DNA from: an uncultured Planctomycetia bacterium
GTDB lineage: Bacteria; Omnitrophota; Gorgyraeia; Duberdicusellales; 4484-171
Length of the DNA: 32,000 nucleotides
Direction of reading: 5' to 3'
Assembly (NCBI GenBank): GCA_964536865.1
Contig: CAZHYN010000011.1
Location: 1 to 32,000 of the forward strand
Position 1 is the first letter of the stretch; every line of letters starts with the position of its first letter. Position numbers and translations under genes: made by a program. Below, piece by piece: positions 1,076-21,901 of this stretch. The notes under the pieces were generated by a model. It did no database searches and was not told the origin of the DNA. It saw only the letters and a program-made list of their open reading frames with translations.

Positions 1076-1629
1076 AGAAAGTTGTTTTTATCTTAGGTGG
1101 AGCAAGGAGTGGTAAAAGTAGTTATGCTGTAGAATTAGCAAAAGAATTAAATAAAAGAACTGTTTTTATTGCTACCTGTATTTTTTTTGATGACCAGATG
1201 AAGGAGAGGATAAAAATGCATAAAGCACAAAGGCCTAAGAAATGGAAGTTAATTGAAGAAGGCAAAGATATTAATTCAGTTTTAGCAAGTTTTAAAAATA
1301 AATACGAGATAATTTTAATTGATTGCTTAGGAATGTGGATTTCAAACCTTCTTTTAGATGGTTTAAAAGATAAACAGATAGAAAAAGAAATCTTTAGATT
1401 AATTAAATCCATATCTAAATTTAAAGGTGTTACCATTCTGGTTTCCAATGAAGTAGGAATGGGGATAGTTCCTGATAATCCTTTGGCAAGGAGATTTAGA
1501 GATTTATTGGGAAGGGCTAATCAGATAATAGCAAGAAATGCTGATGAGGTTATTTTTATGCACTCAGGGATACCAAGAGTTTTAAAAGAGGGAGGAAAAA
1601 ATGCAAAAGCTAAAGGAGACAATAAATAA
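1072..1629 (+). CDS. cobU: Adenosylcobinamide kinase / adenosylcobinamide-phosphate guanylyltransferase
   Basis: P-loop GGARSGKS at the N-terminus. The 185-aa length and overall pattern are typical of CobU/CobP. Operon context supports the call. Confidence 0.9.
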   Translation: MKKVVFILGGARSGKSSYAVELAKELNKRTVFIATCIFFDDQMKERIKMHKAQRPKKWKLIEEGKDINSVLASFKNKYEIILIDCLGMWISNLLLDGLKDKQIEKEIFRLIKSISKFKGVTILVSNEVGMGIVPDNPLARRFRDLLGRANQIIARNADEVIFMHSGIPRVLKEGGKNAKAKGDNK

Positions 1630-2674
1630 AATTGAGAAACTGGATTTTTCTTTAATGGAAGAGACTCAAAAAAAGCTGGATAATCTTACCAAACCAAAAG
1701 GAAGTCTTGGTAGATTGGAAGAGATTGCAAAGCAGGTTGTAGGGATTACAAAGAAAAGAAATCCTCTATTTAAAAATAAAGTTATATTTGTGATGGCTGC
1801 AGATCATGGAGTTACAGAAGAAGGGGTAAGTGCCTACCCTAAGGAGGTTACTTCTCAGATGGTCTATAACTTTATGAAGGGGAAAGCAGCAATTAATGTG
1901 CTGGCAAAACATGTTGGAGCAAGAGTCTTAGTAGTTGATATGGGAGTAACCAGGAGATTGCAGATTACAAATTACAAATTGCAAAATTTTAGAGATAGAA
2001 AGATAAATTATGGAACGAAAAATATAGTAAGAGGACCAGCGATGACTAAAGAGGAAGCAGTAAGAGCTATTGAGGCAGGGATTGAGGTATTTGAGGAGGA
2101 GCTATCAAGAGGGATTGATATTGTTGCTACAGGTGATATGGGTATTGGAAATACTACTTCCTCTTCAGCAATAGCTTCGTGTTTGGCAGGCAGAAGCATA
2201 AAGGATTTAACAGGAAGAGGCACAGGTGTTAGCGATGAGGTATTTTTAAGAAAAGTAGAGATAATTGAGAAAGCAATCAGGATTAATCAACCAAATCCTT
2301 CTGATCCTGTGGATGTATTATCAAAAGTGGGTGGATTTGAGATAGGTGGGCTTGTAGGAATAATTTTGGCTTCTGCATCAAAAAGAGTTCCTGTGGTAAT
2401 TGATGGATTTATTTCTGGGGCAGCAGCATTGATAGCCTATTCTCTAAAAAAGGAGGTAAAGGATTTTTTAATTGCTGGACACTGTTCAGCAGAAAAAGGA
2501 CATAAACTTATCCTTGAATATTTAGGTCTTAGCCCCCTTTTAAACCTTGATATGCGGCTTGGAGAAGGAACAGGTGCAGCCTTAGGGATAAGTATTGTTG
2601 AGGCAAGTATTAAACTTTTAACCCAGATGGCAACATTTGAGGAGGCAGGAGTTTCAACAAAAATTGGCGAATGA
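1601..2674 (+). CDS. cobT: Nicotinate-nucleotide--dimethylbenzimidazole phosphoribosyltransferase
   Basis: Motifs KPKGSLGRLEE and GDMGIGNTT. SD GGAGG at 1591-1595. The start overlaps the cobU 3' end by 29 nt. Confidence 0.92.
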   Translation: MQKLKETINKIEKLDFSLMEETQKKLDNLTKPKGSLGRLEEIAKQVVGITKKRNPLFKNKVIFVMAADHGVTEEGVSAYPKEVTSQMVYNFMKGKAAINVLAKHVGARVLVVDMGVTRRLQITNYKLQNFRDRKINYGTKNIVRGPAMTKEEAVRAIEAGIEVFEEELSRGIDIVATGDMGIGNTTSSSAIASCLAGRSIKDLTGRGTGVSDEVFLRKVEIIEKAIRINQPNPSDPVDVLSKVGGFEIGGLVGIILASASKRVPVVIDGFISGAAALIAYSLKKEVKDFLIAGHCSAEKGHKLILEYLGLSPLLNLDMRLGEGTGAALGISIVEASIKLLTQMATFEEAGVSTKIGE

Positions 2675-3414
2675 AGGGGTTTTTAATTGCTTTACAGTTT
2701 TTAACCATATTTCCTGTAAGAATTAAATCCATAAAGGAGAAGGATTTTGGCGACTCCCTTTTATATTTTCCTTTAATTGGTTTATTAATAGGTTTACTGT
2801 TAACTTTAAGTAGTTTTTTGTTTTCTTTCTTACCCCCATTTTTAAAAGCTACCCTTATCTTACTTACCTCTATTATTATCACCGGAGGAATCCACTTAGA
2901 TGGATTTGTCGATACCTGTGATGGGTTTTATGGCAGAAAAGAAAAGGAGGAAATTTTAGAAATTATGCGAGACAGTCACCTCGGGGTAATGGGAGTGATA
3001 GGTTTGATTTCTAACTTCCTTTTAAAGATAGGCTTTATAATGGCTTTATCCCAAGCAATACTCTGGAAGGCATTGATTTTGATGGCTGTATTTTCAAGAT
3101 GGGTTCAGGTTCTGGTCTGTAATACCTCTTCTTATGTGCGCAAAGAAGGTAAAGCAAAGTATTTTATAGAGTATGCTTTTAAAAAAAGTCTTTATTTAGG
3201 AGGAGGTTTTTGTTTGGCTTTATTCTTATTCTTAATCCAGCTTAAGGGGATTATTTTGTTCTTTTTTTCTTTACTACCAGTATTTCTGTTTTCATCTTAT
3301 GTAAAGAGAAAGATTGGAGGAATGACAGGAGATACAATTGGAGCAGTAAGTGAACTTAGCGAAATATTTTTGCTTTGTGGATGCCTGTTATTATATGGAA
3401 TCAATAGGTATTAG
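2671..3414 (+). CDS. cobS: Adenosylcobinamide-GDP ribazoletransferase (cobalamin synthase)
   Basis: N-terminal ALQFLTIFP motif, HLDGFVDTCDG motif, and a polytopic membrane profile. ATGA overlap with cobT. Confidence 0.9.
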   Translation: MKGFLIALQFLTIFPVRIKSIKEKDFGDSLLYFPLIGLLIGLLLTLSSFLFSFLPPFLKATLILLTSIIITGGIHLDGFVDTCDGFYGRKEKEEILEIMRDSHLGVMGVIGLISNFLLKIGFIMALSQAILWKALILMAVFSRWVQVLVCNTSSYVRKEGKAKYFIEYAFKKSLYLGGGFCLALFLFLIQLKGIILFFFSLLPVFLFSSYVKRKIGGMTGDTIGAVSELSEIFLLCGCLLLYGINRY

Positions 3415-4339
3415 CTTATCTTATCTATTAGATTTAATTATAGGGGATCCCTGCTGGTTTCCTCATCCTGTAAAAGGGCTGGGAAGATTGATAATTTTTC
3501 TGGAAAAGAAATTAAAGAATAGCAAGAAAGGGTATATTCTACGTATGAAAGGGGTTTTACTTGCGGTTATTGTAGTAGGAGTCTCGGTAACAGCTACCTA
3601 TATGGTTTTATATTTTGCTGGAAGAATTGATTATATTTTAAAATTTATCTTCTGGATTATCTTAGGCTATATAAGTTTAGCTACCAAGGATTTATTTCTC
3701 CATGTAAAAAGAATTTTAGAAAAGATTAAGAATGAAGATATAAAAGGGGCAAGAAAAAATCTCTCCTTTATTGTGGGAAGGGATACGCAAGATTTATCGA
3801 GAAAAGAGATTATTTGTGCCTGTATAGAAAGCATTGCTGAGAATACAAATGATGGAATAATTGCCCCTTTATTTTACCTTATTTTAGGAGGACCAACTTT
3901 GGCTGTAGGCTATAAAGCGATAAATACTCTTGATTCCATGGTAGGATATAAAAATGAGGACTACAGAGATTTTGGTTGGTTTTCCGCAAGGTTAGATGAT
4001 TTTGTAAATTTTATTCCTGCCCGTATTACAGGAATACTGATTGTTGTATCTTCTTTTCTTTTAAGATATAACTTTAGAGATTCTTTCCGTATAATGTGTA
4101 GAGATAAAAGAAAGCATCTTTCTCCAAATAGTGGTATCCCAGAAGCAGCTATGGCAGGAGCTTTAGGTATAAGAGTGGGAGGATCTGCAAAATATAAAGG
4201 AAAATTAGTTATAAAACCTTATATTGGGGAAGATAAAACTTTTATAGAGCCTGGTTTGATTAATAAAGCAATAAAGGTGATGTTTCTTACATCATTTCTT
4301 ATGGCTCTTGGAGGAGTTATTTTAAGATGGATAATTTAA
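3395..4339 (+). CDS. cbiB: Adenosylcobinamide-phosphate synthase
   Basis: N-terminal LLDLIIGDPCWFPHPV motif and the multi-TM CbiB/CobD family pattern. I prefer the ATG at 3395 (MESIGISL...) over the track start at 3350, which would run deep into cobS. Confidence 0.87.
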   Translation: MESIGISLSYLLDLIIGDPCWFPHPVKGLGRLIIFLEKKLKNSKKGYILRMKGVLLAVIVVGVSVTATYMVLYFAGRIDYILKFIFWIILGYISLATKDLFLHVKRILEKIKNEDIKGARKNLSFIVGRDTQDLSRKEIICACIESIAENTNDGIIAPLFYLILGGPTLAVGYKAINTLDSMVGYKNEDYRDFGWFSARLDDFVNFIPARITGILIVVSSFLLRYNFRDSFRIMCRDKRKHLSPNSGIPEAAMAGALGIRVGGSAKYKGKLVIKPYIGEDKTFIEPGLINKAIKVMFLTSFLMALGGVILRWII

Positions 4340-5379
4340 TCTTTGAACACGGTGGCAATATTTATGAAATTAAAAGAAATTACAGAAGAGATGTTATTGA
4401 TTTCAGTGCAAATATTAATCCTTTAGGTTTTCCTCCAAAGATAAAAAGCAGGTTATGTAAAAATCTTCAATACATTCTTCATTATCCGGATATAAAAGCA
4501 GAATCCCTTATAAAAAGGATTGCTAAATACTGGTCTATAAAGGAAGAAAACATTTTGGTTGGTAATGGTTCTGTTGACCTTTTATACTTTCTAATTTATA
4601 CCTTTAAACCCAGGAAGGTATGTATCCCTTTTCCAACATTTTCTGAATATGAACGTGCAGCCCGTTGTATAGAAGCTAAAATTAATTTTCTGAAATTGCA
4701 GGAAGATAAAGATTTTAAATTTCAGGGTTTAAAATCAATGGATGCAGAAGTCTTATTTCTGTGCAATCCCAACAATCCTACAGGGAATCTCATCCTTGAA
4801 GAAGAAGATTTTATAGAAAGGTTACCTGTAGAATTAGTCATTATTGATGAAGCCTTTATGGATTTTCTACCAGATGAGAAGAAGTATACCTTAATTTGGA
4901 AGGCTCAAAAGAGTAAAAAAATTATAGTTTTAAGGACATTTACCAAATTTTTTGCTCTTGCAGGATTAAGGCTTGGTTATCTTGTTGCTCAAAAAGATAC
5001 CATTGGTGAACTTAAAAAAAGACAGGTTCCCTGGTGTGTAAACTCTTTCGCTCAACTTCTGGGAGAATCAATCTTAGATGAGAAGGAGTATATAGAGAAA
5101 ACACGGCAATTCATAGAAAGGGAGCGGAGATTCTTATTTACTGAACTTACTGAAATTAGAGAACTAAAACCTTATCCTTCAGTAACTAATTTTCTCTTAA
5201 TTAAAATAGAGAAGAAAAAACTTACCTCCTCTTTATTAAAAACAAAATTGATTCAGGAAGGGATTCTTATCCGAGATTGTTCAAATTTTAGAGGATTAAA
5301 TAATAAATTTATCCGCATTGCTGTACGCAGACACAATGAAAATCTTAAATTGATAGAGGCATTAAAAAAAGTAGTATGA
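4327..5379 (+). CDS. cobD: L-threonine-O-3-phosphate decarboxylase (class I/II aminotransferase fold)
   Basis: NPNNPTG motif and the PLP-lysine region RTFTKFFALAGLRLGY. It is adjacent to cbiB and overlaps it by 13 nt. Confidence 0.85.
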   Translation: MDNLIFEHGGNIYEIKRNYRRDVIDFSANINPLGFPPKIKSRLCKNLQYILHYPDIKAESLIKRIAKYWSIKEENILVGNGSVDLLYFLIYTFKPRKVCIPFPTFSEYERAARCIEAKINFLKLQEDKDFKFQGLKSMDAEVLFLCNPNNPTGNLILEEEDFIERLPVELVIIDEAFMDFLPDEKKYTLIWKAQKSKKIIVLRTFTKFFALAGLRLGYLVAQKDTIGELKKRQVPWCVNSFAQLLGESILDEKEYIEKTRQFIERERRFLFTELTEIRELKPYPSVTNFLLIKIEKKKLTSSLLKTKLIQEGILIRDCSNFRGLNNKFIRIAVRRHNENLKLIEALKKVV

Positions 5380-6296
5380 GAAGAGTAATTGAAGATTTAA
5401 GGAGTATTTTAAAAGAAGTTGTAGAAAGAAATTCTTACGAGGCGCTGCTTTTCTCAGGAGGACTTGATACCTCAATTTTAGCTTACCTTAATGCTTCTTG
5501 CGTAGCTATCACGGTAAGTTTGGAATCTTTCTCAGAAGATTTACATTATTCTGAAATTTTAGCAAAATTCCTTAATATGGAGCATTATCACAGAAAAGTA
5601 AAGATTGATGAAGCAATGGAGGCTATACCTCATCTAATAAGAATTCTTAAATCCTTTGACCCTGCTCTTCCTAATGATCTTGTTGTATATTTTGGACTTA
5701 AATCGGCTGGGGAGCTGGGGATAGAGAGGGTAGTAACTGGCGATGGTGCAGATGAATTATTTTGTGGATATTCCTATATGAAGGATTTAGATGATTTAGA
5801 GACTCATATTAAAAGAATTTCCCGGAATATGAGTTTTAGTTCCAATATTATTGGTAAATTTTACCGGATAAAGATAATTCAGCCTTTCTGTGATATCGTT
5901 GATTTTGCTTTAAAGATTCCTGTTAAGTTAAAAATAAAAGAGTCTGGTGGCAAAATCTGGGGTAAGTGGATATTGAGGAAGGCATTTGAAGGTTTGTTGC
6001 CACAAGAGGTTATCTGGCAGGATAAAAGACCCTTGGAATATGGTTCAGGGATGACTAAGTTAAGAGAAATTATCAGAGCAAAAATTTCTGATGAAGAGTT
6101 TGAGGAAAAAAAGAGATTTTATTCCTTAAAGTTTTTAAATAAAGAGCATCTCTATTTTTATGAAATCTATCAAAAAGAAGTAGGAAAAATCCCTGAGCCT
6201 TCTGAAGGAGAAAAGTGCTGTCCTAATTGTGGAGCAGGGATAAAACAGGATTCTTTTCACTGTAGGATTTGTGGATATGTTTTAGGAGATAAATGA
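5376..6296 (+). CDS. Asparagine-synthetase-type PP-loop ATP pyrophosphatase domain protein with C-terminal zinc ribbon; no glutaminase domain
   Basis: PP-loop FSGGLDTS (nt 5451-5474), TGDGADELFCGY, and WILRKAF..LP..VIWQDKRP, which are motifs of the AsnB C-terminal domain. C-terminal CPNCG..x9..CRICG. ATGA overlap with cobD. Confidence 0.75.
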   Translation: MRRVIEDLRSILKEVVERNSYEALLFSGGLDTSILAYLNASCVAITVSLESFSEDLHYSEILAKFLNMEHYHRKVKIDEAMEAIPHLIRILKSFDPALPNDLVVYFGLKSAGELGIERVVTGDGADELFCGYSYMKDLDDLETHIKRISRNMSFSSNIIGKFYRIKIIQPFCDIVDFALKIPVKLKIKESGGKIWGKWILRKAFEGLLPQEVIWQDKRPLEYGSGMTKLREIIRAKISDEEFEEKKRFYSLKFLNKEHLYFYEIYQKEVGKIPEPSEGEKCCPNCGAGIKQDSFHCRICGYVLGDK

Positions 6297-6958
6297 AAGC
6301 ATTTGTTTCCTGGAGTGGAGGTAAAGAAAGTTCCTTAGCCTGTTGGAAAGTTATAAAAAGAGGTTTTGAAGTTAAATATCTTTTAAATATGGTATCAGAA
6401 GGTGGCAGGTATTCTCATTCACATGGAATAAGTTTGCCCCTATTAAAGAAACAGGCTGAGGCAATAAAGATTCCTATAGTGCAGGTAAAAACCACATGGA
6501 AGAGTTACGAAGAGAATTTTAAAAAAGCAGTTTTAAAACTTAAAGAAGAAGGAATTGAGGCAGGAGTATTTGGAGATATAGACTTAAGAGAACATAGAGA
6601 TTGGATAGAAAGGGTATGTAGAGAATTGAAGATTAAAGCAATTCTTCCTTTATGGGGACAAGAAAGAGAAAAGTTACTTAAGGAATTTATAGAGGTAAAG
6701 TTTGAAGCTATTGTTGTAGCTATTGATACCAACTACTTAGATAAAGAATTGCTGGGAGAAAGGATAAATGAAGAATTTATTCAGAAGCTAAAGGAGAGAA
6801 AAAATATTGATCTTTGTGGAGAGAAGGGTGAATATCATACTTTTGTTTATGGAGGGCCTATTTTTAAGAAGCCTTTAGAGTTTATTACAGGTAAAAGGAT
6901 ATTAAGAGATAAAAGATGTTTTTTGGAGGTTAAACCCAAAATTTGCATTAGAGATTGA
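6293..6958 (+). CDS. MJ0570/Dph6-type PP-loop ATP-binding domain protein (diphthine-ammonia-ligase-like)
   Basis: N-terminal SWSGGKESS PP-loop (nt 6314-6331), GFEVKYLLNMVSE, and the GEKGEYHTFV motif characteristic of the MJ0570 family. ATGA overlap with the preceding gene. Confidence 0.8.
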   Translation: MKAFVSWSGGKESSLACWKVIKRGFEVKYLLNMVSEGGRYSHSHGISLPLLKKQAEAIKIPIVQVKTTWKSYEENFKKAVLKLKEEGIEAGVFGDIDLREHRDWIERVCRELKIKAILPLWGQEREKLLKEFIEVKFEAIVVAIDTNYLDKELLGERINEEFIQKLKERKNIDLCGEKGEYHTFVYGGPIFKKPLEFITGKRILRDKRCFLEVKPKICIRD

Positions 6959-7032
6959 AAAGCTTCCTAACTATTCAAAATGTTACAGTTATACAGTAAA
7001 GCTTTACACCAAAAAGATACAAAGGCAAATCT

Positions 7033-7188
7033 CAGCCCCGCCCTTTCTGCTACGAAGAAAATCTACGATGTAGAAAGGGCGGGGCTGTGGTTTTGCCTTC
7101 GGCAGCCCTTTATTTTTCATAGGAAGAAATTCATTCGTAGAAATAAAGGGCTGGGTCCTTCGGACAAATTTTTCTAATGAAAAATTTG
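7033..7188 (+). other. Tandemly duplicated structured RNA/DNA element (two long perfect hairpins, each followed by a CCUUCGG mini-hairpin, plus an AT hairpin)
   Basis: Hairpin A: arms 7033-7048 and 7072-7087, 16 bp perfect. Mini-hairpin at 7094-7104. Hairpin B: arms 7103-7115 and 7141-7153, 13 bp perfect. Mini-hairpin at 7155-7165. AT hairpin at 7165-7188. Units A and B align with each other. Confidence 0.55.
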
Positions 7189-7202
7189 GGTTAAATTAAA
7201 AA

Positions 7203-7934
7203 ATGAATAGAAAAGAGATTGCTTTAAATTTGGAAGGTGTAAAGGCAGAGATAATTTATCATTATTTTGAAAGTGTTAAAGTAAAGACTTTTCTTCTTTC
7301 TTTTTCAAAAAGAAGAAAAGTTTTATCAACTCTGGAAGGATTTAAGGAAGTGAAGTTTGTTGGCAATCATTACAATCCTCCCAAGCTTTGGGATTTTGTT
7401 CATAAAAATAAGAAGGAATATGAAGAAAGAATTTATTCTGATTTAGGAATAAATCCTAAGGATATAGCCATGTTATTTACTGGAGTGGATATGGATAATA
7501 TTTGTTTTAAAAAGGGAGGATTTAAAGATATTCAAGTCTGTGCCTGTGTTACCGCTGGTGTTAAATCCAATGCTCAAAGAATAGGAGTTGATGAAGCAAA
7601 AAGTGTAGAAATCAGAGAAGGAGTATTTGAATCACTGGGAACAGTTAACATAATAGTTCTTTTAAATTCATCTTTAACTGAGGGAGCAATGGCAAGAAGC
7701 ATAATTACGATAACTGAAGCAAAAACAATTACCTTTCAAGATTTGGATATAAGGAGTTCATATAATCCCAGGATTCAGGCTACAGGAACGGGAACAGATA
7801 ATATTATGGTAGTTTCAGGTTTTGGGAAAGAGATAACCTATGTGGGTGGGCATGCAAAGATGGGAGAGATAATGGCAAGGGCAGTAAGTTATGCAGTAAG
7901 AGAAGCAATCTTAAAACAAGATAAAATGAAATGA
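7203..7934 (+). CDS. cbiZ: Adenosylcobinamide amidohydrolase
   Basis: The pattern TAGVKSNAQRIG ... GTVNIIVLLNSSLTEGAMARSIITITEAKT ... ATGTGTDNIMVV matches my recollection of the CbiZ family. It sits between cob genes and a BtuF-like gene. Confidence 0.75.
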   Translation: MNRKEIALNLEGVKAEIIYHYFESVKVKTFLLSFSKRRKVLSTLEGFKEVKFVGNHYNPPKLWDFVHKNKKEYEERIYSDLGINPKDIAMLFTGVDMDNICFKKGGFKDIQVCACVTAGVKSNAQRIGVDEAKSVEIREGVFESLGTVNIIVLLNSSLTEGAMARSIITITEAKTITFQDLDIRSSYNPRIQATGTGTDNIMVVSGFGKEITYVGGHAKMGEIMARAVSYAVREAILKQDKMK

Positions 7935-8689
7935 AGGTAATTTCCTTAGCGCCTTCTATCACTGAGACTATATTTGTTTTAGGGTGTGGGGATAAACTTG
8001 TGGGAGTAACTGAATTTTGCAATTGGCCTCCTGAGGCTAAATTGATAGATAAAATTGGAGGTTTCTCCACCCCGGATATAAAGAGAATAATTTCTCTAAA
8101 TCCTGATTTGGTATTAGCCACAGATTTTCATTTAAAAATTGTTAACTATTTGAAAGAAAGGGGAATAAATACATATGTTATAGAAGCCAAAACAATTTTA
8201 GATGCTCCTCAAAGTATAATTCAGGTAGGTAAAGCCATTGATTGTAAAGATGAGGCAGTTAAATTAGCAAAAGAATTGAAAAATGAAATGGATACTTTTT
8301 TAGAAAAAATAAAAAGGATACCCAAAAAGGTGCGTGTATGTTATCTCTGTGATATCTTTTGTGTTGCTTGGAGGTCCTGTGCAATGAGTAGGTTGATTGA
8401 AACATTAGGAGGGATAAATATTGGGAAAAATATTAAATCAAATCAGCAAGGAACTGTTCTTAAAGAGATTGCTGAGAAGGATCCTGAAGTGATAATTACA
8501 GCTAAGGGGCACAGGGAAAGTGTAGATTTATTATCTTTTGTTAAAGAAACTTCTTATTTTAAGAAAACCAAAGCCTACAAAAACAATAGAATTTATCAAA
8601 TTCAGGCAGAATTAGTCTGCCGTCCTGGACCAAGAGCAATGATAGGATTAAAAAGATTGGCTAAATTTATTCATCCTGAGGTATTTTGA
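7931..8689 (+). CDS. BtuF-like (class III periplasmic-binding-protein fold) corrinoid-binding protein lacking a signal peptide
   Basis: It starts directly with MKVISLAPSITETIFVLG..DKLVGVT, the typical first strand and helix of BtuF/FhuD-type binders. No hydrophobic leader is present. NPDLVLA motif. ATGA overlap with cbiZ. Confidence 0.75.
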   Translation: MKVISLAPSITETIFVLGCGDKLVGVTEFCNWPPEAKLIDKIGGFSTPDIKRIISLNPDLVLATDFHLKIVNYLKERGINTYVIEAKTILDAPQSIIQVGKAIDCKDEAVKLAKELKNEMDTFLEKIKRIPKKVRVCYLCDIFCVAWRSCAMSRLIETLGGINIGKNIKSNQQGTVLKEIAEKDPEVIITAKGHRESVDLLSFVKETSYFKKTKAYKNNRIYQIQAELVCRPGPRAMIGLKRLAKFIHPEVF

Positions 8690-8692
8690 GAA

Positions 8693-9571
8693 ATGGAAAA
8701 AAGGAAGGTTCTACTTTTGACCTTTGCTGAGCATCCAGACCAGGAAGAAAAATGCTGGATAAGCCTTTCGGGATGTAATTTTAATTGTAAAGGGTGTGCT
8801 GCTTTAAGTAGAAAGGAAGTAGGCAAGTTTATCTCAAGCAGAGATTTAGCGAGATTGGTATTTAAATCTTCTCAATATTTTTGGGGTAAAATGGTAAAAA
8901 GAGCAGTAATTACCGGAGGCGAGCCCACATTAGATCCTGAATATCTATTATCTTTAATTTCTGATTTAAAAGATTACTCAGTTAGATATTTTGAACTCTC
9001 CACAAATGGTTTTATGATTGATGAAGATTTATTGAAAGAACTTCTTAAGTTGAAATTACCTGTATTGGTAAAACTGGATTTAAAGGCTTATGATGAAAAG
9101 ATTCATAAAGAATATACAGGTAAAAGCAATGTTAATGTATTAAGGGCAATAGAACTTCTAAGTAAGTTCGGTCCCAGGTTATATAAAGTGAGTTATCCTT
9201 TTGTAGTGCGCACCGTTTATATACCAAATATTATTGATATAGATCAGATTGAAAAGATTGCAAAATTTATAGCAGGAATAAACAAAAATGTCTGTTATCG
9301 TATAGAACAATTTTCTCCTATCCATGGTGGATATATATCCAGAAGACCTAATTTTAATGAGATGATGGAAGCATATAACATTGCAAAAAAATACTTAGAA
9401 AACGCTGTTATCACTACTTATTTGCCCACAAGACCTGAATATAACTATTGGGAAGTTCGTGCAGATGAGGCTTTAAGTCTCTTTGAGGAGATTGATAAAA
9501 AATCAAAATCGGTTATCAAAAGCTGGAAGCCAAAATTTCTTACAATGAACCAAATTTTAAACTCTGAATAG
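8693..9571 (+). CDS. Radical SAM protein (small, PflA/NrdG-like architecture), paralog 1
   Basis: CX3CX2C motif CNFNCKGC at nt 8774-8797 and the GGEPTLDPEYL motif. The C-terminal IEKIAKFIAGINKNVCYRIEQF is shared with the next gene. Confidence 0.8.
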   Translation: MEKRKVLLLTFAEHPDQEEKCWISLSGCNFNCKGCAALSRKEVGKFISSRDLARLVFKSSQYFWGKMVKRAVITGGEPTLDPEYLLSLISDLKDYSVRYFELSTNGFMIDEDLLKELLKLKLPVLVKLDLKAYDEKIHKEYTGKSNVNVLRAIELLSKFGPRLYKVSYPFVVRTVYIPNIIDIDQIEKIAKFIAGINKNVCYRIEQFSPIHGGYISRRPNFNEMMEAYNIAKKYLENAVITTYLPTRPEYNYWEVRADEALSLFEEIDKKSKSVIKSWKPKFLTMNQILNSE

Positions 9572-9573
9572 AA

Positions 9574-10293
9574 ATGGGAGTATACCATATTACTTATACA
9601 CCAGATTTAAGACAGGTTTGTCTCTATATGAATGGGGGATGTAGTTTTTCTTGCCATGGTTGTATCACTGATTGGCATCCTGAGGATTGTCATATAAAAG
9701 ATGCAAAAAAGAAAAAGAATAGAACTTTAAAAATTGAAGAAGTTATATCTTTTTTAAAATCCCTTGATTTTAAAAAAGTTATCTTTCTGGGGAAAGAACC
9801 AACAGAAGATGTAGATTTTTTACCACTGGCAAGATTATTGAAGGAAAGATTTTTTAGTTTTAACATTTTACTTACCAATGGATACAGATTTATAGAAGAA
9901 GAAGTAATTGATGAGGTCTGTGTAAGTATTAAAGCTATATCAAAAAAGTTATTTAAGGATTTTACAGGGAAAGATGACCCAGAAAGCGTCTTAAAAAACT
10001 TTAAAAGATATGTGGATAAATCCAAAGTTAAAGCGCGGGCAGAAAGTATTTTTATTCCTGATTATATTGAGAGTAAAGAGATAGAAAAGATTGCTCAATT
10101 TATTGCTAATATAAATCCCGAAATCCCTTATCGTATCGATGGATATATACCCTATTCAAGTAAGGATAGATTCAGGCGACCAACTAAGAACCAAATGGAA
10201 GAAGCCAAAAAAATAAGTAAGAGATATTTAAAAAATGTTTCCATTTTACACTCTAAGATGAAGGTAAGGTATAAAGTGGAGAGGGTATATTAA
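9574..10293 (+). CDS. Radical SAM protein, paralog 2
   Basis: CX3CX2C motif CSFSCHGC at nt 9640-9663, GKEPTEDVDFL, and C-terminal IEKIAQFIANINPEIPYRIDGY. It starts 2 nt after paralog 1. Confidence 0.75.
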   Translation: MGVYHITYTPDLRQVCLYMNGGCSFSCHGCITDWHPEDCHIKDAKKKKNRTLKIEEVISFLKSLDFKKVIFLGKEPTEDVDFLPLARLLKERFFSFNILLTNGYRFIEEEVIDEVCVSIKAISKKLFKDFTGKDDPESVLKNFKRYVDKSKVKARAESIFIPDYIESKEIEKIAQFIANINPEIPYRIDGYIPYSSKDRFRRPTKNQMEEAKKISKRYLKNVSILHSKMKVRYKVERVY

Positions 10294-10304
10294 GGGTATA
10301 TTAA

Positions 10305-11141
10305 ATGAAAAAGAGAATCTTATTTTTTGCTTGCTTTCTTCTACTTTCATATAATAGTGTTTTGGTTGAATGTGCCAGTAGGGTGTATCCTCAAAGAATT
10401 ATCTCCTTAGGCCCTTCCTTAACAGAGGAGTTATATCTTTTAGGAGTAGAAGATAGAGTTATTGGATGCACAATCTATGCGCCTGAATGTGCCAAAAATA
10501 AGGAGAAAGTTGGGACAGTTATTGATATAAATTTGGAAAAGATAATAAAACTTAAGCCCGATTTAGTATTGGCTACGTCTCTAGTCAACCCCAAACAGAT
10601 AGAGAAGCTAAGAAAGCTAAAAATAAAAGTTGTTGTTTTCCATCAGGCAAGAAGTTTTCAAGAATTATGTGACCAATTTTGGGAATTGTCAAAGCTTGTA
10701 GGAAAGCAAGATAAGGCAAGCCAGATACTTAAAGAAGTGAGAGAAAAAGTAAAGAGTATAAGAGATAAGACAAAAGGCTTAAAAAAGACAAAAGTATTTA
10801 TTCAAATAGGAGCAAAGCCCTTATTTACTGCTGGAAAAAATTCTTTTGTGAATGATTTTATAGAATTTGCAGGAGGAATAAATATCGCTAAGGATACAGA
10901 ATTTGGTATTTACTCTCGAGAGAAAGTCTTAAAAAAAAATCCTGATGTAATTATCATTGTAACAATGGGAATTAGAGGAATAAAAGAGAAAGAAATCTGG
11001 CAGAGATATAAAAATATAAATGCAGTTAAAAACAAAAGAATATATATTATTGATTCTTACAAGATTTGCAGCCCTACGCCAACCAGTTTCGTAGAGACAT
11101 TAAAAGAATTGGTTAAGATTTTACATCCGGAAATAGAATGA
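10305..11141 (+). CDS. btuF: Periplasmic corrinoid-binding protein of ABC transporter
   Basis: N-terminal signal sequence MKKRILFFACFLLLSYNSVLVEC, then RIISLGPSLTEELYLLG..DRVIG and KPDLVLA. It lies directly upstream of the permease and ATPase genes. Confidence 0.8.
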   Translation: MKKRILFFACFLLLSYNSVLVECASRVYPQRIISLGPSLTEELYLLGVEDRVIGCTIYAPECAKNKEKVGTVIDINLEKIIKLKPDLVLATSLVNPKQIEKLRKLKIKVVVFHQARSFQELCDQFWELSKLVGKQDKASQILKEVREKVKSIRDKTKGLKKTKVFIQIGAKPLFTAGKNSFVNDFIEFAGGINIAKDTEFGIYSREKVLKKNPDVIIIVTMGIRGIKEKEIWQRYKNINAVKNKRIYIIDSYKICSPTPTSFVETLKELVKILHPEIE

Positions 11142-12127
11142 ATAAGAAATTAATAAACTGGCTTAGTTGGTCGTTAATTCTAATATTGGTTGTATTTATT
11201 GTAATGATTTTCTCATTATGTATCGGTTCTGTAAAAGTCCCTTTAAGTCAGATTTTTAATCCCTCTGATGAGATAACCAGTGAAATTTTATTTAAAATCC
11301 GTCTTCCCCGCATTATTTTAGGTTTTGCAGTTGGAGGAGCACTTGCTATTTCAGGAGTTATCTTGCAGGGACTGTTTAGAAACCCTTTAGTGGAACCGTA
11401 TACTTTAGGAATTTCTGGAGGAGCAGGAGTTTTTGTCTGTTTAAACATTGTTTTGAAGATCTATCAGAAATTTGGGGTAATAACTTTTCCCATTTCAGGT
11501 TTTTTAGGTGCAGGATTAGTAATTATTTTAGTTTATATTTTAAGCACCAAAAAAGGTAAGTTAAGGATTCAGGGGCTTTTGCTCACCGGGGTTATGATAA
11601 GCTTTATCTCATCTTCCATTATAATGCTTATTATGGCTATGACTAAAAGCGAAAATTTACATGGAATAGTTTTCTGGATAATGGGTTCTTTAGAGGAGCC
11701 AAATATATTTCTTGTAAAAATAACTCTTTTAATATCAATTTTAGGGCTTTTAATTTCCTATATATTCTGTTTGGATTTAAACGCCTTTTCCTGCGGTGAG
11801 GAGGAAGCACATCATCTGGGAATAGATGTTGAGAAAGCAAAAAAGTTACTTTTTATTCTGGCATCTGTTCTTACAGGCGTATGCGTATCAGTTGCTGGGA
11901 TAATTGGATTTGTTGGGCTCCTGGTCCCTCACCTTATGCGCATATTTACAGGAGAAGACCACAGAATATTACTTTTAAGTTCTTATTTATGCGGCGCAAG
12001 CTTTTTAATTTTTTCTGATACCTTAGCAAGAACAATTATTTCACCCTTAGAGCTTCCTGTAGGGGTTATTACCGGGGTTATAGGAGGAAGTTTATTTATT
12101 TATGTGCTTACTAAAAGGGGAAGATAA
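11138..12127 (+). CDS. btuC: FecCD-family ABC permease (vitamin B12 import)
   Basis: Polytopic protein with the RLPRIILGFAVGGALAISGVILQG motif typical of BtuC/FecCD. ATGA overlap with btuF. Confidence 0.88.
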   Translation: MNKKLINWLSWSLILILVVFIVMIFSLCIGSVKVPLSQIFNPSDEITSEILFKIRLPRIILGFAVGGALAISGVILQGLFRNPLVEPYTLGISGGAGVFVCLNIVLKIYQKFGVITFPISGFLGAGLVIILVYILSTKKGKLRIQGLLLTGVMISFISSSIIMLIMAMTKSENLHGIVFWIMGSLEEPNIFLVKITLLISILGLLISYIFCLDLNAFSCGEEEAHHLGIDVEKAKKLLFILASVLTGVCVSVAGIIGFVGLLVPHLMRIFTGEDHRILLLSSYLCGASFLIFSDTLARTIISPLELPVGVITGVIGGSLFIYVLTKRGR

Positions 12128-12924
12128 TGCTAAAGATAAGAAACTTGGTGTGCGGTTATGATAATTTCTTGCTTAAAGATATAAGTTTTAAAGTAAATTC
12201 CTCGGAACTGGTAGGAATAATTGGACCTAATGGTTCGGGTAAAACTACATTGATAAGAGCGATAACTAAATTAGTAAGACCAAAAGAAGGGAAAATAATT
12301 TATCAGGGGAAAGATATAACCAAATTGAGTTTTAAAAAATTAGCAAAAGATATTGCCGTTGTTTCTCAGGATGCATATTTTCCTGAAATGATAAAAGTTA
12401 AAGATTTTGTGCTTTTAGGAAGAATTCCTCATTTTAAAAAATTCCAGTTTTTGGAGACAAACAAAGATTTAGAGATTGCAGAGGGAGTTATGAAGTTGAC
12501 AGGAGTATTAGAAATCAAAGATAGATTTTTAAAGGAAACAAGTGGTGGAGAAAGGCAGCTTGTTTTAATTGCAAAAGCATTGGCTCAGGAGCCAAAATTA
12601 CTTTTATTGGATGAGCCCACAGTCCATCTGGATATAACACACAAAATAAAGATACTGGATTTAATAAGAAGGTTAAATAAAAAATATGGTTTAACTGTGT
12701 TGGTTGTCTTGCATGATTTAAATTTAGCAAGTCAATACTGTGATAGGCTGATTCTGCTTAAGGAAGGAAAAATTTATAAGATTGGTATACCTTCTGAGGT
12801 TTTAACTTATCAAATCATTGAAGAAGTTTACCAAACAGTGGTAATTGTGAAAGAAAATCCCCTTAATTTTAGACCCTATGTATTTTTAGTTTCAGAGGAG
12901 GAAACAAAAAGGAGGAAAAGATGA
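12127..12924 (+). CDS. btuD: ABC transporter ATP-binding protein (vitamin B12 import)
   Basis: Walker A GPNGSGKTT, signature SGGERQ, and Walker B LLLLDEPT. 1-nt overlap with btuC. Confidence 0.88.
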   Translation: MLKIRNLVCGYDNFLLKDISFKVNSSELVGIIGPNGSGKTTLIRAITKLVRPKEGKIIYQGKDITKLSFKKLAKDIAVVSQDAYFPEMIKVKDFVLLGRIPHFKKFQFLETNKDLEIAEGVMKLTGVLEIKDRFLKETSGGERQLVLIAKALAQEPKLLLLDEPTVHLDITHKIKILDLIRRLNKKYGLTVLVVLHDLNLASQYCDRLILLKEGKIYKIGIPSEVLTYQIIEEVYQTVVIVKENPLNFRPYVFLVSEEETKRRKR

Positions 12925-13448
12925 GAAAAGGATTAATTCAGATTTATACCGGTGACGGAAAAGGCAAGACTACGGCAAGTATTGGTCTGGCTATAAGAGC
13001 AAAGGGGCAGAGATTTAGAGTTTGTGTTATCTATTTTCATAAAGAACCCAAAAGGTGGAGATACGGAGAATATAGGATTTTAAAAAAATTGGGAATAGAT
13101 ATATTTGGCTTTGCTAAAAAACATCCCCATTTTTATAAGAATGTAAAGAAAGAGGAGATGAGAAAAGAGTGTTTTAAAGCACTCAAGTTTATTAAGAAGA
13201 TATTTGAGAAAGCAAAATATGACTTACTTATTTTAGATGAGATACTCATCTCTTTACGGGAGGGATACTTAAAAGAAGAAGAAATTTTAGAAATAATGGA
13301 TTTAAAACCAAAAAATTTAGAGTTGGTTTTAACAGGCAGATTTCTGACAAAAAATATAACTGATAAGGCAGATTATGTAACAGAGATGAAGAAGATAAAG
13401 CATCCTTTCGATAAAGGGATAACGGGAAGAAGGGGGGTAGAATATTAA
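12921..13448 (+). CDS. cobO: Cob(I)yrinic acid a,c-diamide / cob(I)alamin adenosyltransferase
   Basis: IQIYTGDGKGKTTASIGLAIRA P-loop of the CobA/CobO/BtuR family and LILDE. 175 aa. Confidence 0.9.
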   Translation: MRKGLIQIYTGDGKGKTTASIGLAIRAKGQRFRVCVIYFHKEPKRWRYGEYRILKKLGIDIFGFAKKHPHFYKNVKKEEMRKECFKALKFIKKIFEKAKYDLLILDEILISLREGYLKEEEILEIMDLKPKNLELVLTGRFLTKNITDKADYVTEMKKIKHPFDKGITGRRGVEY

Positions 13449-13617: not shown

Positions 13618-13700
13618 ATATGTCCAAAAATGTCTATTGATAGAAGTGAAGTGTAATGAAAAAATTTATTTATCGTTTGCTCTTTAAAGTATTTTGACCG

Positions 13701-13931
13701 GATAGGCAGAGGAAGTGATGGTGACCCGCCTTCGCCAGAGCAAAAACTTCATAGAGGTTAAGCTTTGGTGGGCAGGAATTCCATCCGCTGCCCGGCAACG
13801 GTAATGTCTCCATTTATTAGAAGGAGACGAGCCCGGTCGACTGCCTATCTTGGGAAGTACCTTCTTGGGGAGGGAAGAAAAATAAGTGAAATGTTATTAT
13901 TTAGCCGACCTCAAGAAGGTCGGCTTTTTTA
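13701..13931 (+). promoter_or_regulatory. Cobalamin riboswitch (compact type without the GCCACUG/GGGAAGGC P6 extension) plus terminator/antiterminator platform
   Basis: P1 GGAUAGGCAG (13701-13710) pairs with CUGCCUAUC (13842-13850). Other elements: AGGAAGUGAUGGUGA, CCGCUGCCCGGCAACGGUAA, a GUCUCC...GGAGAC hairpin, and the B12-box-like GAGCCCGGUCGACUGCC. Candidate antiterminator: 13860-13868 pairs with 13913-13921. Confidence 0.75.
13904..13931 (+). terminator. Intrinsic terminator of riboswitch 2
   Basis: Hairpin AGCCGACC-ucaagaa-GGUCGGCU (13904-13926) running into a T6 run (13926-13931). The SD AAGGAGG follows at 13941-13947. Confidence 0.7.
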
Positions 13932-13953: not shown

Positions 13954-15816
13954 ATGAAAAAGTTTGTCTTAAGTCTGGGTATGGCTTTTATTCCTCTATT
14001 AGCTTCTACTCAGGAAATTCCTACTTATCAACTTGGCAAGATTGTGGTTACAGCTACAAGAACAGAGCAATATCAGGCAGAAGTTGGAAGTTCAACTACA
14101 GTGATAACGGATGAGGATTTAAAGAAAAAAGGAAAAACTTATCTTTTAGATGTTTTAAGAGAAACACCTGGGGTATCAGTGACGCAATATGGTGGATTTG
14201 GAGGTGGGACAACTGTATATCTTCGAGGTGCAGAACCAGGGCATACTTTGGTGATGATTGATGGAGTGGAAGTAAATGATCCTATGGGGATGTATGGAGG
14301 ATATTTTGATTTTGCTCATATATTAACTGATGATATTCAAAAAGTAGAAATTGTAAGAGGCCCTCACTCTACATTATATGGTTCTGATGCTATAGGTGGG
14401 GTGGTTAATATTATTACTAAAAAGGGAGAAGGTAGCCCAAAATGGCAGGCATTGTTTGAAGGCGGTTCATATGATACATTTAAAGAATCTTTAAGTTATG
14501 CAGGCTCAAATGAGAGATTTAATTATTATTTTTCTCTGGTTCGGTTAGATTCAGATGGGATTTCTAAGGCAGAAGATGGTTCTGAAGATGATGCTTATAG
14601 AAATACGACCTTCTCCAGTCGTCTTGGCTATAAAATTTCTGAATCATCGGATCTGGATTTAATTTTTCGCTATATAGATGCAAAGACAGATTTAGACGAT
14701 GGGGCATATCAGGATGATCCCAATTATATTGCTTGGTGGAAGAACTTTGTTGGAAAGGCTTCATTCACTCAATGTGTAAACTCTTTCTGGGATTACAATC
14801 TTTCTTTTTCCTATTCCCGAACCAAAAGGATGTATCGGGATGACCCTGATAGTGTGGACACAACCGATAATACTCATAACTGGTATATAGGAGATAACAG
14901 AAAATTAGAATGGCAGAACAATATTTATCCCTTAGAGTGGGATACAATAACATTAGGATTTGAATATGAGAAAATAAGGGGTTATGAGAATGGAAGAAAT
15001 TCCTGGAATAGATTTGATAGAAAGACAATAGATAACAAAGCCTTTTATCTTCAGAATCAAACTAAACTTTGGAATAAACTTTTTATAACTGCTGGAGTCA
15101 GATACGATGACCACGAAATTTTCGGCAATGAAACTACTTACAGAATATCAACTGCTTATATTATCCCTCGTATAGGAGGACGATTTAAAGCCAACTGGGG
15201 AACGGGTTTTAAAGCTCCTTCTTTGTTTCAGCTATATTCTTCAAGTTATGGAGATATAAATTTACAGCCTGAAGAAAGCAGAAGTTTTGATATCGGCTAT
15301 GAACAGAATTTTCTGGATAATAAGTTATCTTTAAATTTAGTTTATTTTCATAATAAAATCAAAAATCTAATTCAATTTGATATGTCTACCTGGAAGTATA
15401 AAAATATTGGAAAGGCAAAGACCAAAGGAGTAGAGACAGGATTTAGTTTTAGCCCTTCTGAAGACTTAAAGGTCGGCATTAACTATACTTACTTAGATTG
15501 TAAGAATGAAATTACAGGGAAAAAATTAGCCCGTAGACCTGAAGATGAAATTTCTTTAAACATAAATTACAGATTTTTAGATAGAGGGAATCTTAATATT
15601 TCCACAAGTTATGTTGGCTGCCGCTGGGATGATAGTGCAAATACAAAGAAATTAAAACGATATGCTAAGGTTGACCTTACAGTTACTTATGATTTGGCAA
15701 AGAATTTTCAAATTTTTGCCAGGGCAGAGAATTTGTTTGATAAGGATTATATGCAAATCCGGGGATACAAAATGCCTAAAGCATCCTTCTATGCTGGAGT
15801 AAAGAGAACTTTTTAA
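13954..15816 (+). CDS. btuB: TonB-dependent outer-membrane corrinoid receptor
   Basis: Signal peptide, TonB box KIVVTATR, plug motifs (LLDVLRETPGV, LRGAEPGHTLVMIDGVEV, IEIVRGP.STLYGSDAIGGVVNIIT), and a terminal aromatic F. It is controlled by a cobalamin riboswitch. Confidence 0.85.
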   Translation: MKKFVLSLGMAFIPLLASTQEIPTYQLGKIVVTATRTEQYQAEVGSSTTVITDEDLKKKGKTYLLDVLRETPGVSVTQYGGFGGGTTVYLRGAEPGHTLVMIDGVEVNDPMGMYGGYFDFAHILTDDIQKVEIVRGPHSTLYGSDAIGGVVNIITKKGEGSPKWQALFEGGSYDTFKESLSYAGSNERFNYYFSLVRLDSDGISKAEDGSEDDAYRNTTFSSRLGYKISESSDLDLIFRYIDAKTDLDDGAYQDDPNYIAWWKNFVGKASFTQCVNSFWDYNLSFSYSRTKRMYRDDPDSVDTTDNTHNWYIGDNRKLEWQNNIYPLEWDTITLGFEYEKIRGYENGRNSWNRFDRKTIDNKAFYLQNQTKLWNKLFITAGVRYDDHEIFGNETTYRISTAYIIPRIGGRFKANWGTGFKAPSLFQLYSSSYGDINLQPEESRSFDIGYEQNFLDNKLSLNLVYFHNKIKNLIQFDMSTWKYKNIGKAKTKGVETGFSFSPSEDLKVGINYTYLDCKNEITGKKLARRPEDEISLNINYRFLDRGNLNISTSYVGCRWDDSANTKKLKRYAKVDLTVTYDLAKNFQIFARAENLFDKDYMQIRGYKMPKASFYAGVKRTF

Positions 15817-15955
15817 ACTCAAGATAAAAAATTATATAGAGCAAGGAGTCTACTTCTGTTAAAGAATCTATAAGGTTTTATTTAATAACAACTTTGTCCG
15901 AGTGTGTAAAGTTTATGCCACATATTCTGGTTTCTCAACAAGAAAGGAGTAATTG

Positions 15956-16576: not shown

Positions 16577-16582
16577 GAAAGT

Positions 16583-17049: not shown

Positions 17050-17052
17050 ACT

Positions 17053-18530: not shown

Positions 18531-18559
18531 GCAGCTAATTTTTTTTATTTATTAAATGG

Positions 18560-18574: not shown

Positions 18575-18591
18575 AAGGTGAGGAGGTAAAA

Positions 18592-19556: not shown

Positions 19557-19583
19557 AATATATACATATAATAAGGAAGGAGG

Positions 19584-21900: not shown

Positions 21901-21901
21901 A

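Follow-up and report, generated by a model that had tools for sequence, protein, structure and literature searches.

Rare radical-SAM families beside vitamin B12 uptake genes suggest an undescribed step in anaerobic corrinoid recycling

Two small radical S-adenosylmethionine (radical-SAM) proteins, encoded side by side in an uncultured Omnitrophota bacterium, were found to represent rare, uncharacterised families, as were an unusual CbiZ and a leaderless binder-like protein encoded with them. These families occur almost only next to genes for vitamin B12 uptake, and this suggests that the anaerobic recycling of B12-like molecules (corrinoids) includes an undescribed step. The genes were analysed in a 32,000-nt stretch of DNA (contig CAZHYN010000011.1, positions 1 to 32,000; hereafter the window). 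Their products are referred to as rSAM-A (8693-9571, 292 aa) and rSAM-B (9574-10293, 239 aa), and they follow a cbiZ gene (7203-7934), whose product is called CbiZ*, and the gene of a leaderless paralog of the class-III binding proteins (cBP, 7931-8689); all four lie on the + strand. The region belongs to an operon for the import and rebuilding of corrinoids, with a cobalamin riboswitch at its head, and the locus as a whole is of a kind already known, namely a corrinoid salvage operon under riboswitch control. A first-pass annotation of the sequence had proposed that the four genes form a corrinoid-remodelling module in which the binding protein serves the radical-SAM pair. Its open reading frame (ORF) coordinates were reproduced, together with the 4-nt overlap between cbiZ and the binder gene and the subsequent gaps of 3, 2 and 11 nt, the last of which leads into btuF.

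Two radical-SAM families and their linkage to B12 genes

Both radical-SAM genes are strongly linked to B12 genes across more than ten bacterial and archaeal phyla. When the rSAM-A alignment was scanned against one genome per GTDB species, orthologs (full-length copies with at least 42% identity) were found at 17 species-level loci, 15 of which lie among btuFCD, cobO, cbiB, cobD, cobS and TonB-receptor genes. The bacterial loci belong to Nitrospirota, Elusimicrobiota, Omnitrophota, Aquificota, Desantisbacteria and unclassified bacteria, and the archaeal loci to Bathyarchaeia/Nitrososphaeria, Hecatellales and Methanomethylicia; the commonest neighbour of rSAM-A is CbiZ*. A scan of metagenomes with the rSAM-B alignment yielded 72 full-length copies, 51 of them with at least 1.5 kb of flanking sequence, and a B12 gene was located within 10 kb in 48 of these 51 flanked loci. 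The remaining three hold a DUF4465 protein, a pilin-like protein, rSAM-B, a Dph6-like protein and a DUF6580 protein, and DUF4465 was identified by experiment as a B12-binding domain (PMC13398666).

Among the 72 loci, the gene upstream of rSAM-B is Dph6-like in 19, encodes a binding protein in 18 and is cbiB in 6, and the downstream neighbour is btuF in 21, btuC in 13, a Dph6-like gene on the opposite strand in 11 and cBP in 6. Typically, rSAM-B is wedged between a Dph6-like or binding-protein gene on one side and btuF or btuC on the other, and it adjoins a binding-protein gene in at least 45 of the loci. Cobalamin riboswitches were detected upstream of orthologous operons (L001, L013, L016, L017). 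Many rSAM-B operons (L016, L099, L123, L127, L141, L142) contain cbiB, cobD, cobU/T/S/C and btuFCD with no CbiZ within reach, and another route must therefore supply the substrate of CbiB or CobU from imported corrinoids in these operons; all relatives are metagenome-assembled, bins can be wrong, and CbiZ or other genes may lie elsewhere in the genomes.

The two proteins are true paralogs (30% identity over 230 residues, E = 3e-26). Both carry a CX3CX2C motif (8774-8797 in rSAM-A and 9640-9663 in rSAM-B), a variant of the SAM motif (GGEPT or GKEPT) and the common C-terminal motif IEKIA(K/Q)FIAxINxxxxYRI, as the first-pass annotation had described. Membership in the radical-SAM superfamily was supported by PF04055 scores of 82.8 and 42.7 bits (gathering score 29.5). 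Pfam matches for both ORFs were confined to Radical_SAM and Fer4_12; domains of the cobalamin-binding, SPASM and ThiC-like types were not detected, which upholds the earlier view that a cobalamin-binding N-terminal domain is absent. With lengths of 292 and 239 aa and a core that begins at residue 20-25, the proteins were assigned neither to the class B radical-SAM enzymes nor to the ThiC-like BzaA/B/F enzymes. A SPASM match was likewise found with neither Pfam nor NCBIfam, and the family alignments contain no conserved extra cysteines. The three cluster cysteines alone are invariant, indicating that there is no auxiliary cluster.

The SAM-binding motifs are also invariant in the family alignments, except that the middle residue of GxE varies in rSAM-B. 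The rSAM-A family is marked by T10, P15, HxxYTGxxN, W278 and a C-terminal FTMNQIL, and the rSAM-B family by YHIT, D38-x-H40, GxEPT, SIKA and PYRIDGY, with H5, D38-x-H40, G73xE75 and PYRID invariant. The D-x-H that follows the rSAM-B cluster loop was considered as a B12 "His-on" motif and is not claimed as such; glycyl-radical activases also have His and Asp residues in the cluster loop.

Assignment to a curated family was rejected for both proteins, since NCBIfam and Pfam yielded generic radical-SAM matches only. The best NCBIfam scores of rSAM-A were 67 bits for YjjW (cut-off 250), 60.5 for NrdG2 (131) and 52 for PflA (232), and rSAM-B reached 33 bits at best (YjjW 32, PFLA 28, NrdG 26.5 against a cut-off of 126). 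In a sequence search of the PDB, rSAM-A matched PflA only (E = 4e-7), and rSAM-B gave no match. The AlphaFold2 model of rSAM-A (mean predicted local distance difference test score, pLDDT, 91.7) matched most closely the pyruvate formate-lyase activating enzyme (PFL-AE) structures 8fo0 and 3c8f in Foldseek (E = 1e-15, TM-scores 0.78-0.81), followed by NifB, viperin and the cores of maturases of ribosomally synthesised and post-translationally modified peptides (RiPPs). A PFL-AE-type fold with a single N-terminal CX3CX2C cluster is therefore predicted for both paralogs, the model being that of rSAM-A. The rSAM-B family is tiny: an exhaustive phmmer search of 1.84 billion cluster representatives returned 275 clusters at E ≤ 1e-3 and 25 at E ≤ 1e-30. 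The domain fusions encountered in the family were of two kinds only, with ThiS or between several radical-SAM domains.

With the activases of glycyl-radical enzymes (PflA/PFL-AE, NrdG), the two proteins have in common their size class, an N-terminal CX3CX2C, a SAM motif of the GGE type, the partial TIM-barrel fold (TM-score 0.81 to 8fo0) and the lack of an auxiliary cluster. Unlike these activases, rSAM-A and rSAM-B score far under the curated cut-offs, lack the CxxCHN signature and have no glycyl-radical enzyme nearby, and rSAM-A is enlarged by an additional beta-hairpin at the N-terminus and by 55 residues at the C-terminus. None of the ORFs of the window was found to encode a PFL-like, Gly_radical or NRDD domain, in line with the earlier remark that no glycyl-radical enzyme is present. 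A role as NrdG or PflA for a glycyl-radical enzyme elsewhere was rejected, as a real NrdG is encoded separately in relatives, where it coexists with rSAM-B (L095) or with rSAM-A (L062). Thus, profile searches place neither protein in a characterised family and reveal no SPASM motif, and rSAM-A and rSAM-B form families of their own, outside the glycyl-radical activases and the SPASM, class-B and ThiC-like enzymes. Neither the full-text literature searched nor the curated models yielded a description of the two enzymes, and the same literature contained none of radical-SAM genes in a cbiZ or btuF context or of the CbiZ* subfamily.

Partner proteins and the mosaic composition of the module

The cBP gene (Pfam Peripla_BP_2, 90 bits) had been predicted to start directly at the mature domain. 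This was borne out, because an in-frame TGA lies three codons upstream (…KTR*NEMKVISLAPS) and no upstream start can therefore provide a leader. The subfamily is leaderless throughout, beginning with M(x0-4)RI[IV]SLAPSxTE and measuring 250-267 aa, and has homologs in Omnitrophota, Dehalococcoidia, Lentisphaerota and others. The paralog at 10305, which does carry the hydrophobic leader ascribed to it (MKKRILFFACFLLLSYNSVLVECA), is 31% identical to cBP (E = 2e-28). Cysteines absent from the leader-bearing BtuFs were found in cBP, namely VC137-Y-x-C140 and C150, along with C30 and usually C230, and in all loci retrieved the VC[YF]xC motif occurs exactly where the leader is missing. The cBP sequence stays below the cut-off of the BtuF equivalog NF002894 (65.7 bits against 234) and passes that of the generic TroA_like subfamily NF038402 (58.8 against 30). 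Its AlphaFold2 model (pLDDT 92.3) matches the class-III proteins RhuT, BhuT, ShuT and BtuF with TM-scores of 0.77-0.86, which identifies the fold of the tetrapyrrole binders. Thus, cBP shares with BtuF and the heme-binding proteins RhuT, BhuT and ShuT the two-lobed class-III fold, the Peripla_BP_2 domain and a btuCD neighbourhood, and it differs from BtuF in the missing signal peptide, the VCYxC…C motif, the sub-cut-off equivalog score and its coexistence with a normal BtuF. No description of cytoplasmic BtuF paralogs was found in the literature searched.

By homology, the Cys motif of cBP would be placed in the C-lobe, within its first strand and loop, and would point towards the cleft. By analogy, the cysteines could possibly ligate cobalt, or form a metal or iron-sulfur site. 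A precedent is BtuM of Thiobacillus, a B12-handling protein that is reported to bind cobalt via cysteine and to decyanate (PMC6072759). BtuM differs from cBP in being a membrane protein of unrelated fold, and Cys ligation by cBP is hypothetical. The suggestion that cBP is a dedicated, obligate partner of the radical-SAM pair was rejected. The gene adjoins a leader-bearing btuF in btuFCD operons with neither a radical-SAM gene nor cbiZ (L092, L093, L094), and cBP therefore belongs with the transporter, as its accessory, rather than with the pair; most rSAM-B loci, in turn, lack cBP.

CbiZ* is a CbiZ by sequence and constitutes a separate subfamily. It matches PF01955 with 175 bits (gathering score 27), and T117-A-G, E172-A-K, D182xRS and G206/G208 are invariant and common to canonical CbiZ. 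Like the CbiZ of Methanosarcina, Halobacterium and Rhodobacter sphaeroides, with which it shares this domain and the core residues, it occurs beside btuFCD and cbiB. The copies that adjoin rSAM-A or rSAM-B in bacteria and archaea are 55-72% identical to CbiZ*, compared with ~32-36% for the canonical CbiZ-CobZ fusion (CbiS, 265 bits) of the same archaeal loci, and CbiZ* reaches 74 bits against the CbiS equivalog (cut-off 250). Subfamily-specific insertions are present at the N-terminus and in mid-sequence, and the gene nearly always adjoins rSAM-A or rSAM-B. CbiZ* probably retains amidohydrolase activity, possibly on a different set of substrates; no solved CbiZ structure was found. The SGFG motif was considered as a glycyl-radical site and rejected, its glycines being invariant in canonical CbiZ as well.

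Two further genes, passed over by the first-pass annotation, belong to the same accessory set as the four. The AsnB-like protein (5376-6296, + strand; Pfam Asn_synthase, 116 bits) has an adenylating domain with the PP-loop SGGLDTS and a C-terminal zinc ribbon, lacks a glutaminase domain and lies far below every NCBIfam cut-off. The gene overlaps by 4 nt with that of the Dph6-like PP-loop ATP-pyrophosphatase (6293-6958, + strand; PF01902, Diphthami_syn_2, 192 bits), which carries an SGGKES motif and scores 140 bits with NCBIfam Dph6_archaeal, under the cut-off of 197. Dph6-like genes are the most frequent enzyme partners of rSAM-B, being present within 10 kb in 42 of the 72 loci and directly adjacent in 34. 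AsnB-like genes were found in 23 of the 72, and both recur in B12 salvage operons even without any radical-SAM gene (L092). Among the few complete operons, those with CbiP tend to lack the AsnB-like gene (L114, L137 and the archaeal loci, with L108 as an exception). The AsnB-like and Dph6-like proteins may be corrin-carboxylate amidases.

The four genes form a mosaic with no fixed block. The order cbiZ-cBP-rSAM-A-rSAM-B was seen only in the lineage of the window, whereas the recurrent core consists of a Dph6-like gene, rSAM-B and then btuF or btuC, with rSAM-A, CbiZ and cBP each optional and each present in a minority of rSAM-B loci. Other arrangements include Dph6-cbiZ-rSAM-A-cBP-rSAM-B (L025/L103), cbiZ-cBP-rSAM-B (L102), an archaeal order in which a radical-SAM/SPASM gene, a binding-protein gene and DUF4015 precede rSAM-A-cbiZ-rSAM-B-btuC-btuD, and monoderm-type cassettes of a binding-protein gene, rSAM-B, btuC and btuD. 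The linkage anticipated for the four genes therefore held for the radical-SAM genes, with riboswitches in relatives, and failed for the block as a conserved unit. In the close relative L095 (88-96% identical to the window; 5337-9208), cbiZ is reduced to two short remnants, and an intein-bearing nrdD (1057 bits) and an nrdG (228 bits, cut-off 131) stand where the window has cbiZ and rSAM-A, flanked by the Dph6-like gene and cBP. A 2.4-kb contig with the order nrdG-cBP-rSAM-A (L062, JAFCFS010000073.1) is 73-95% identical to the window and is binned as Candidatus Woesearchaeota; it is probably a mis-binned Omnitrophota fragment.

Additional genes accompany the module in several relatives. In Bathyarchaeial loci (L010/L011, 7097-10004; also L005, L015 and L019), a radical-SAM/SPASM enzyme resembling AhbD/NirJ2, a type that modifies tetrapyrrole side chains, and DUF4015 lie upstream of rSAM-A, and the same loci hold two types of CbiZ, CbiZ* and CbiZ-CobZ (CbiS). 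Loci of the L116 type (6723-11647; also L115, L117 and L119) encode DUF4465, a type-IV-pilin-like protein, rSAM-B, a Dph6-like protein and DUF6580 (187 aa) and lack btuFCD; DUF6580 may be an unrecognised corrinoid transporter. In an Aquificota locus (L023, 1849-4025), a TrpD-like phosphoribosyltransferase (Glycos_transf_3) and a Zn-dependent alcohol/threonine-type dehydrogenase are inserted between cBP and rSAM-B, and may provide alternative base activation and aminopropanol.

Other relatives (L003, 2984-4574; L012, 1271-2855; L016, 6706-8271; L099, L141, L142, L108 and L114) encode, between their AsnB-like and Dph6-like genes, the peptide CbpA (TIGR04164) and its maturase CbpB, a SPASM protein (TIGR04163, up to 702 bits). 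CbpA is a 35-aa peptide that ends in …RKKCKxxGTGLxHYILxDKK, and its conserved Cys and His could be cobalt ligands. This "cobopeptide" system is a curated RiPP-like system, for whose CbpB no description was found in the literature. It is comparable to rSAM-A and rSAM-B in being an uncharacterised radical-SAM component of B12 operons, whereas CbpB is an unrelated SPASM enzyme of 410-470 aa. Tblastn searches of the window with the L012 and L003 copies gave chance-level matches only, and the system is absent there.

A possible radical step in corrinoid salvage and the competing explanations

In the known parts of the operon, the TonB receptor and BtuFCD import corrinoids, which CobO adenosylates; CbiZ would strip an unwanted nucleotide loop, and CbiB/CobD together with CobU/T/S/C rebuild it. 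For the uncharacterised accessory set, we infer from gene content and anatomy, folds, motifs, family rarity and B12 linkage a substrate and a chemistry of the following kind. In rSAM-A and rSAM-B, a 5'-deoxyadenosyl radical would take a hydrogen from the nucleotide loop, linker or side chain of the corrinoid. The radical step would detach or repair a part beyond the reach of hydrolytic enzymes and give an intermediate at the level of cobyric acid or cobinamide phosphate, which the co-encoded enzymes would complete. The AsnB-like and Dph6-like ligases would re-amidate free corrin carboxylates, and cBP would retain the corrinoid in the cytoplasm, possibly by a bond between cysteine and cobalt.

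This proposal was favoured because the genes are tightly embedded in transporter operons of unrelated phyla, because many rSAM-B operons carry cbiB, cobD and cobUTSC without CbiZ, because rSAM-A prefers as its neighbour CbiZ*, the one known type of loop-removing enzyme, and because AhbD/NirJ-like enzymes occur in the archaeal versions. It also has a recognised niche, the stripping or swapping of lower ligands by means other than CbiZ, which is filled elsewhere by the CbiR phosphodiesterase (Akkermansia) and CobS-based remodelling (Vibrio); these belong to families unrelated to rSAM-A and rSAM-B and use hydrolytic or transferase rather than radical chemistry. A 2026 review lists no remodelling enzymes other than CbiZ, CbiR and CobS. 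That the radical-SAM pair acts on imported corrinoids, with the PP-loop enzymes re-amidating carboxylates and cBP serving as a cytoplasmic carrier, is put forward tentatively, as an account whose prospects fall a little short of even.

Several observations weigh against this account. The functional case is built throughout on guilt by association, and CobO, CbiZ, CbiB and CobU already make up a complete textbook salvage route, in which radical chemistry is not obviously "needed" at any point. Among solved structures, the closest in fold is PFL-AE, a protein-directed enzyme, and the four genes are not inherited as a unit. Riboswitch control of the four genes is uncertain, because a hairpin-rich, terminator-like spacer intervenes between them and the riboswitch at 119-363. 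Distant rSAM-A homologs of methanogens and anaerobic methanotrophic archaea (ANME; ~40% identity) lie outside B12 salvage loci. These are proteins of 262 aa, or of 409 aa with a C-terminal ThiS domain, that lack the C-terminal 50 residues; their neighbours (L006, 7805-9034; L007-L009, 10001-10789; L029-L058) are YcaO/TfuA, ThiF, rhodanese, NifU and MoaE/ThiS, or else HMD, CobN and CbiM, and they may be linked to sulfur transfer. Finally, the nrdDG genes of L095 reveal that mere substitutes for B12-dependent enzymes can sit in the operon, so that operon membership alone cannot separate salvage enzymes from B12-independent substitutes. As nrdD and nrdG occupy the very position at issue, the earlier attribution of remodelling chemistry to the module is not supported in the form in which it was made, and it is kept here in the conditional.

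The same genes raise the question of whether the radical-SAM enzymes are themselves B12-independent substitutes, either alone or jointly with the Dph6-like and AsnB-like proteins, that are induced through the riboswitch at B12 scarcity, like metE and nrdDG, and never contact a corrinoid. Control of B12-independent isozymes by B12 riboswitches is commonplace, L095 has nrdD and nrdG inside the operon, L062 has nrdG next to cBP and rSAM-A, and the distant family members outside B12 loci fit as well. An isozyme gene, however, would be expected at varied riboswitch-controlled sites and not nearly always in transporter operons, whereas rSAM-B adjoins btuF, a binding protein or btuC in most of the 72 loci, in very different phyla. 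Nor is the combination of a small radical-SAM enzyme with a PP-loop ligase known to replace any B12-dependent reaction, and substitution is an unlikely explanation. An improbable one, too, is PFL-AE-type modification of a protein or peptide encoded nearby, such as BtuF or cBP, CbiZ*, or a small peptide like CbpA. Such a role would suit the best structural match, the binding-protein gene that so often stands beside rSAM-B (at least 45 of 72), the unusual conservation of CbiZ* (~70% between bacteria and archaea), the CbpA peptide and CbpB maturase of related loci, and the pairing of a SPASM with a small radical-SAM protein in HxsB/HxsC (NCBIfam names). Each candidate target meets an objection, however: CbpA and CbpB are missing from the window, CbiZ* and cBP from many rSAM-B loci, and BtuF sequences are similar whether or not the locus contains rSAM-B. 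The SGFG/GG glycines of CbiZ are common to canonical CbiZ and hence no target site specific to a radical-SAM enzyme, a glycyl-radical signature was not found, and the activase cut-offs are not reached.

Handling of the upper (beta) ligand, in which a radical would combine with cob(II)amide to form a Co-C bond without Co(I), or would remove alkyl or cyano ligands, is suggested by the minimal cassettes of a binding protein, rSAM-B, btuC and btuD, where a lone radical-SAM gene points to treatment of the cargo by one enzyme. CbiZ requires adenosylated substrates, and the cysteines of cBP recall the Cys-cobalt chemistry of the BtuM type. CobO, however, is encoded in the window as well as at the majority of bacterial loci and would render a second adenosylation route redundant, and neither the existence of two paralogs nor the partnership with the Dph6-like protein would be explained; we consider such a role quite unlikely. 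The Dph6-like partner (42 of 72 loci) is, in turn, what would be expected if the pair made a precursor, either the lower-ligand base or the aminopropanol linker, by the logic of QueE and QueC, in which a small PFL-AE-like radical-SAM enzyme is likewise paired with a PP-loop ATP-pyrophosphatase. The presence of cobT and cobD in the same operons, the phosphoribosyltransferase and dehydrogenase inserted in L023 and weak matches to QueE agree with this. The QueE score, however, is 25.7 bits against a cut-off of 260, and the context is B12 uptake, not queuosine. The minimal cassettes consist of the transporter and rSAM-B with no cobT, the rSAM-B/Dph6-like pair of L116 stands beside a B12-binding protein with no loop-assembly gene, and the known anaerobic benzimidazole synthases are ThiC-like, all of which leaves precursor synthesis very unlikely.

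If rSAM-A and rSAM-B do act on corrinoids, radical-SAM chemistry would reach a new substrate class and genome-based prediction of salvage would change. Most microbes rely on B12-type cofactors made by others, and the analogues that they can use shape communities. The locus type is widespread in uncultured anaerobes, including Omnitrophota, Nitrospirota, Elusimicrobiota, Aquificota and Bathyarchaeia, and offers small, expressible candidates for the radical step, the ATP-dependent amidation steps and a cytoplasmic corrinoid carrier. In its most far-reaching form, the corrinoid hypothesis would make rSAM-A and rSAM-B the first radical-SAM enzymes with corrinoid substrates, and cobamides would be remodelled or repaired by a third route, of a radical kind, in addition to those of CbiZ and CbiR. 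The Dph6-like and AsnB-like proteins would join in as new ATP-dependent amidases of corrin carboxylates, and cBP would be the first bacterial cytoplasmic corrinoid chaperone, taking its cargo from BtuCD. This full version appears somewhat doubtful, and new enzymology on corrinoids of any kind is likewise regarded as a real prospect that will more probably fail than succeed.

Operon layout and surrounding genes

The operon spans ~13 kb and comprises the riboswitch and 17 co-directional B12 genes, all on the + strand. It is headed by the cobalamin riboswitch (119-363; Rfam RF00174, 74 bits against a gathering score of 31.5), followed at 461-5379 by the genes for nucleotide-loop assembly and the linker, identified from ORFs, translations and Pfam: a cobC-like phosphatase gene, cobU, cobT, cobS, cbiB and cobD, which on the identical source contig were matched by the Pfam families His_Phos_1, CobU, DBI_PRT, CobS, CobD_Cbib and Aminotran_1_2. 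The AsnB-like and Dph6-like genes and, after the spacer, the four genes of the module come next. Downstream, Pfam and NCBIfam place the leader-bearing btuF (10305-11141), btuC, btuD and the adenosyltransferase gene cobO at 10305-13448. Independent gene calls on the 47-kb source contig (ENA ERZ27248455, k141_285398) gave the same genes. In the databases, the nearest relatives bear the labels Omnitrophica or Omnitrophota.

The 245-nt spacer between the Dph6-like gene and cbiZ (6959-7202, + strand) is rich in hairpins and inverted repeats. It is predicted to fold with a minimum free energy of -91.7 kcal/mol (z = -8.6) and contains two very stable hairpins, with stems at 7027-7093 and at about 7103-7155 (inverted repeats I1 and I4), and a terminator-like site at 7093-7105. 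No promoter-like site was found on the + strand of the spacer, nor any Rfam family or second riboswitch within it, and no further copy of the hairpin sequence was found in the window. Relatives lack such a spacer, their Dph6-like gene running directly up to cbiZ. The spacer is possibly a terminator, attenuator or processing site.

The series continues on the + strand at 13954-17751 with a TonB-dependent receptor gene, still part of the operon, and then exbB, exbD and tonB (Pfam Plug, TonB_dep_Rec, MotA_ExbB, ExbD and TonB_C). The 505-nt gap that precedes the receptor gene contains a sub-threshold match resembling a cobalamin riboswitch (13687-13862; 16 bits against the gathering score of 31.5, E = 0.06), and bona fide riboswitches lie ahead of receptor genes in three relatives (L001, L017, L028). 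After the TonB system, the region 18114-26303, which is unrelated to the present finding, encodes Fur and ArsR regulators, a peptide deformylase and a thioredoxin-domain protein, and then a thioredoxin-reductase-like protein, an HdrA-like FAD/4Fe-4S protein and HdrB/C-like CCG and ferredoxin subunits. A tRNA gene, equally unrelated, is located at 29320-29394.

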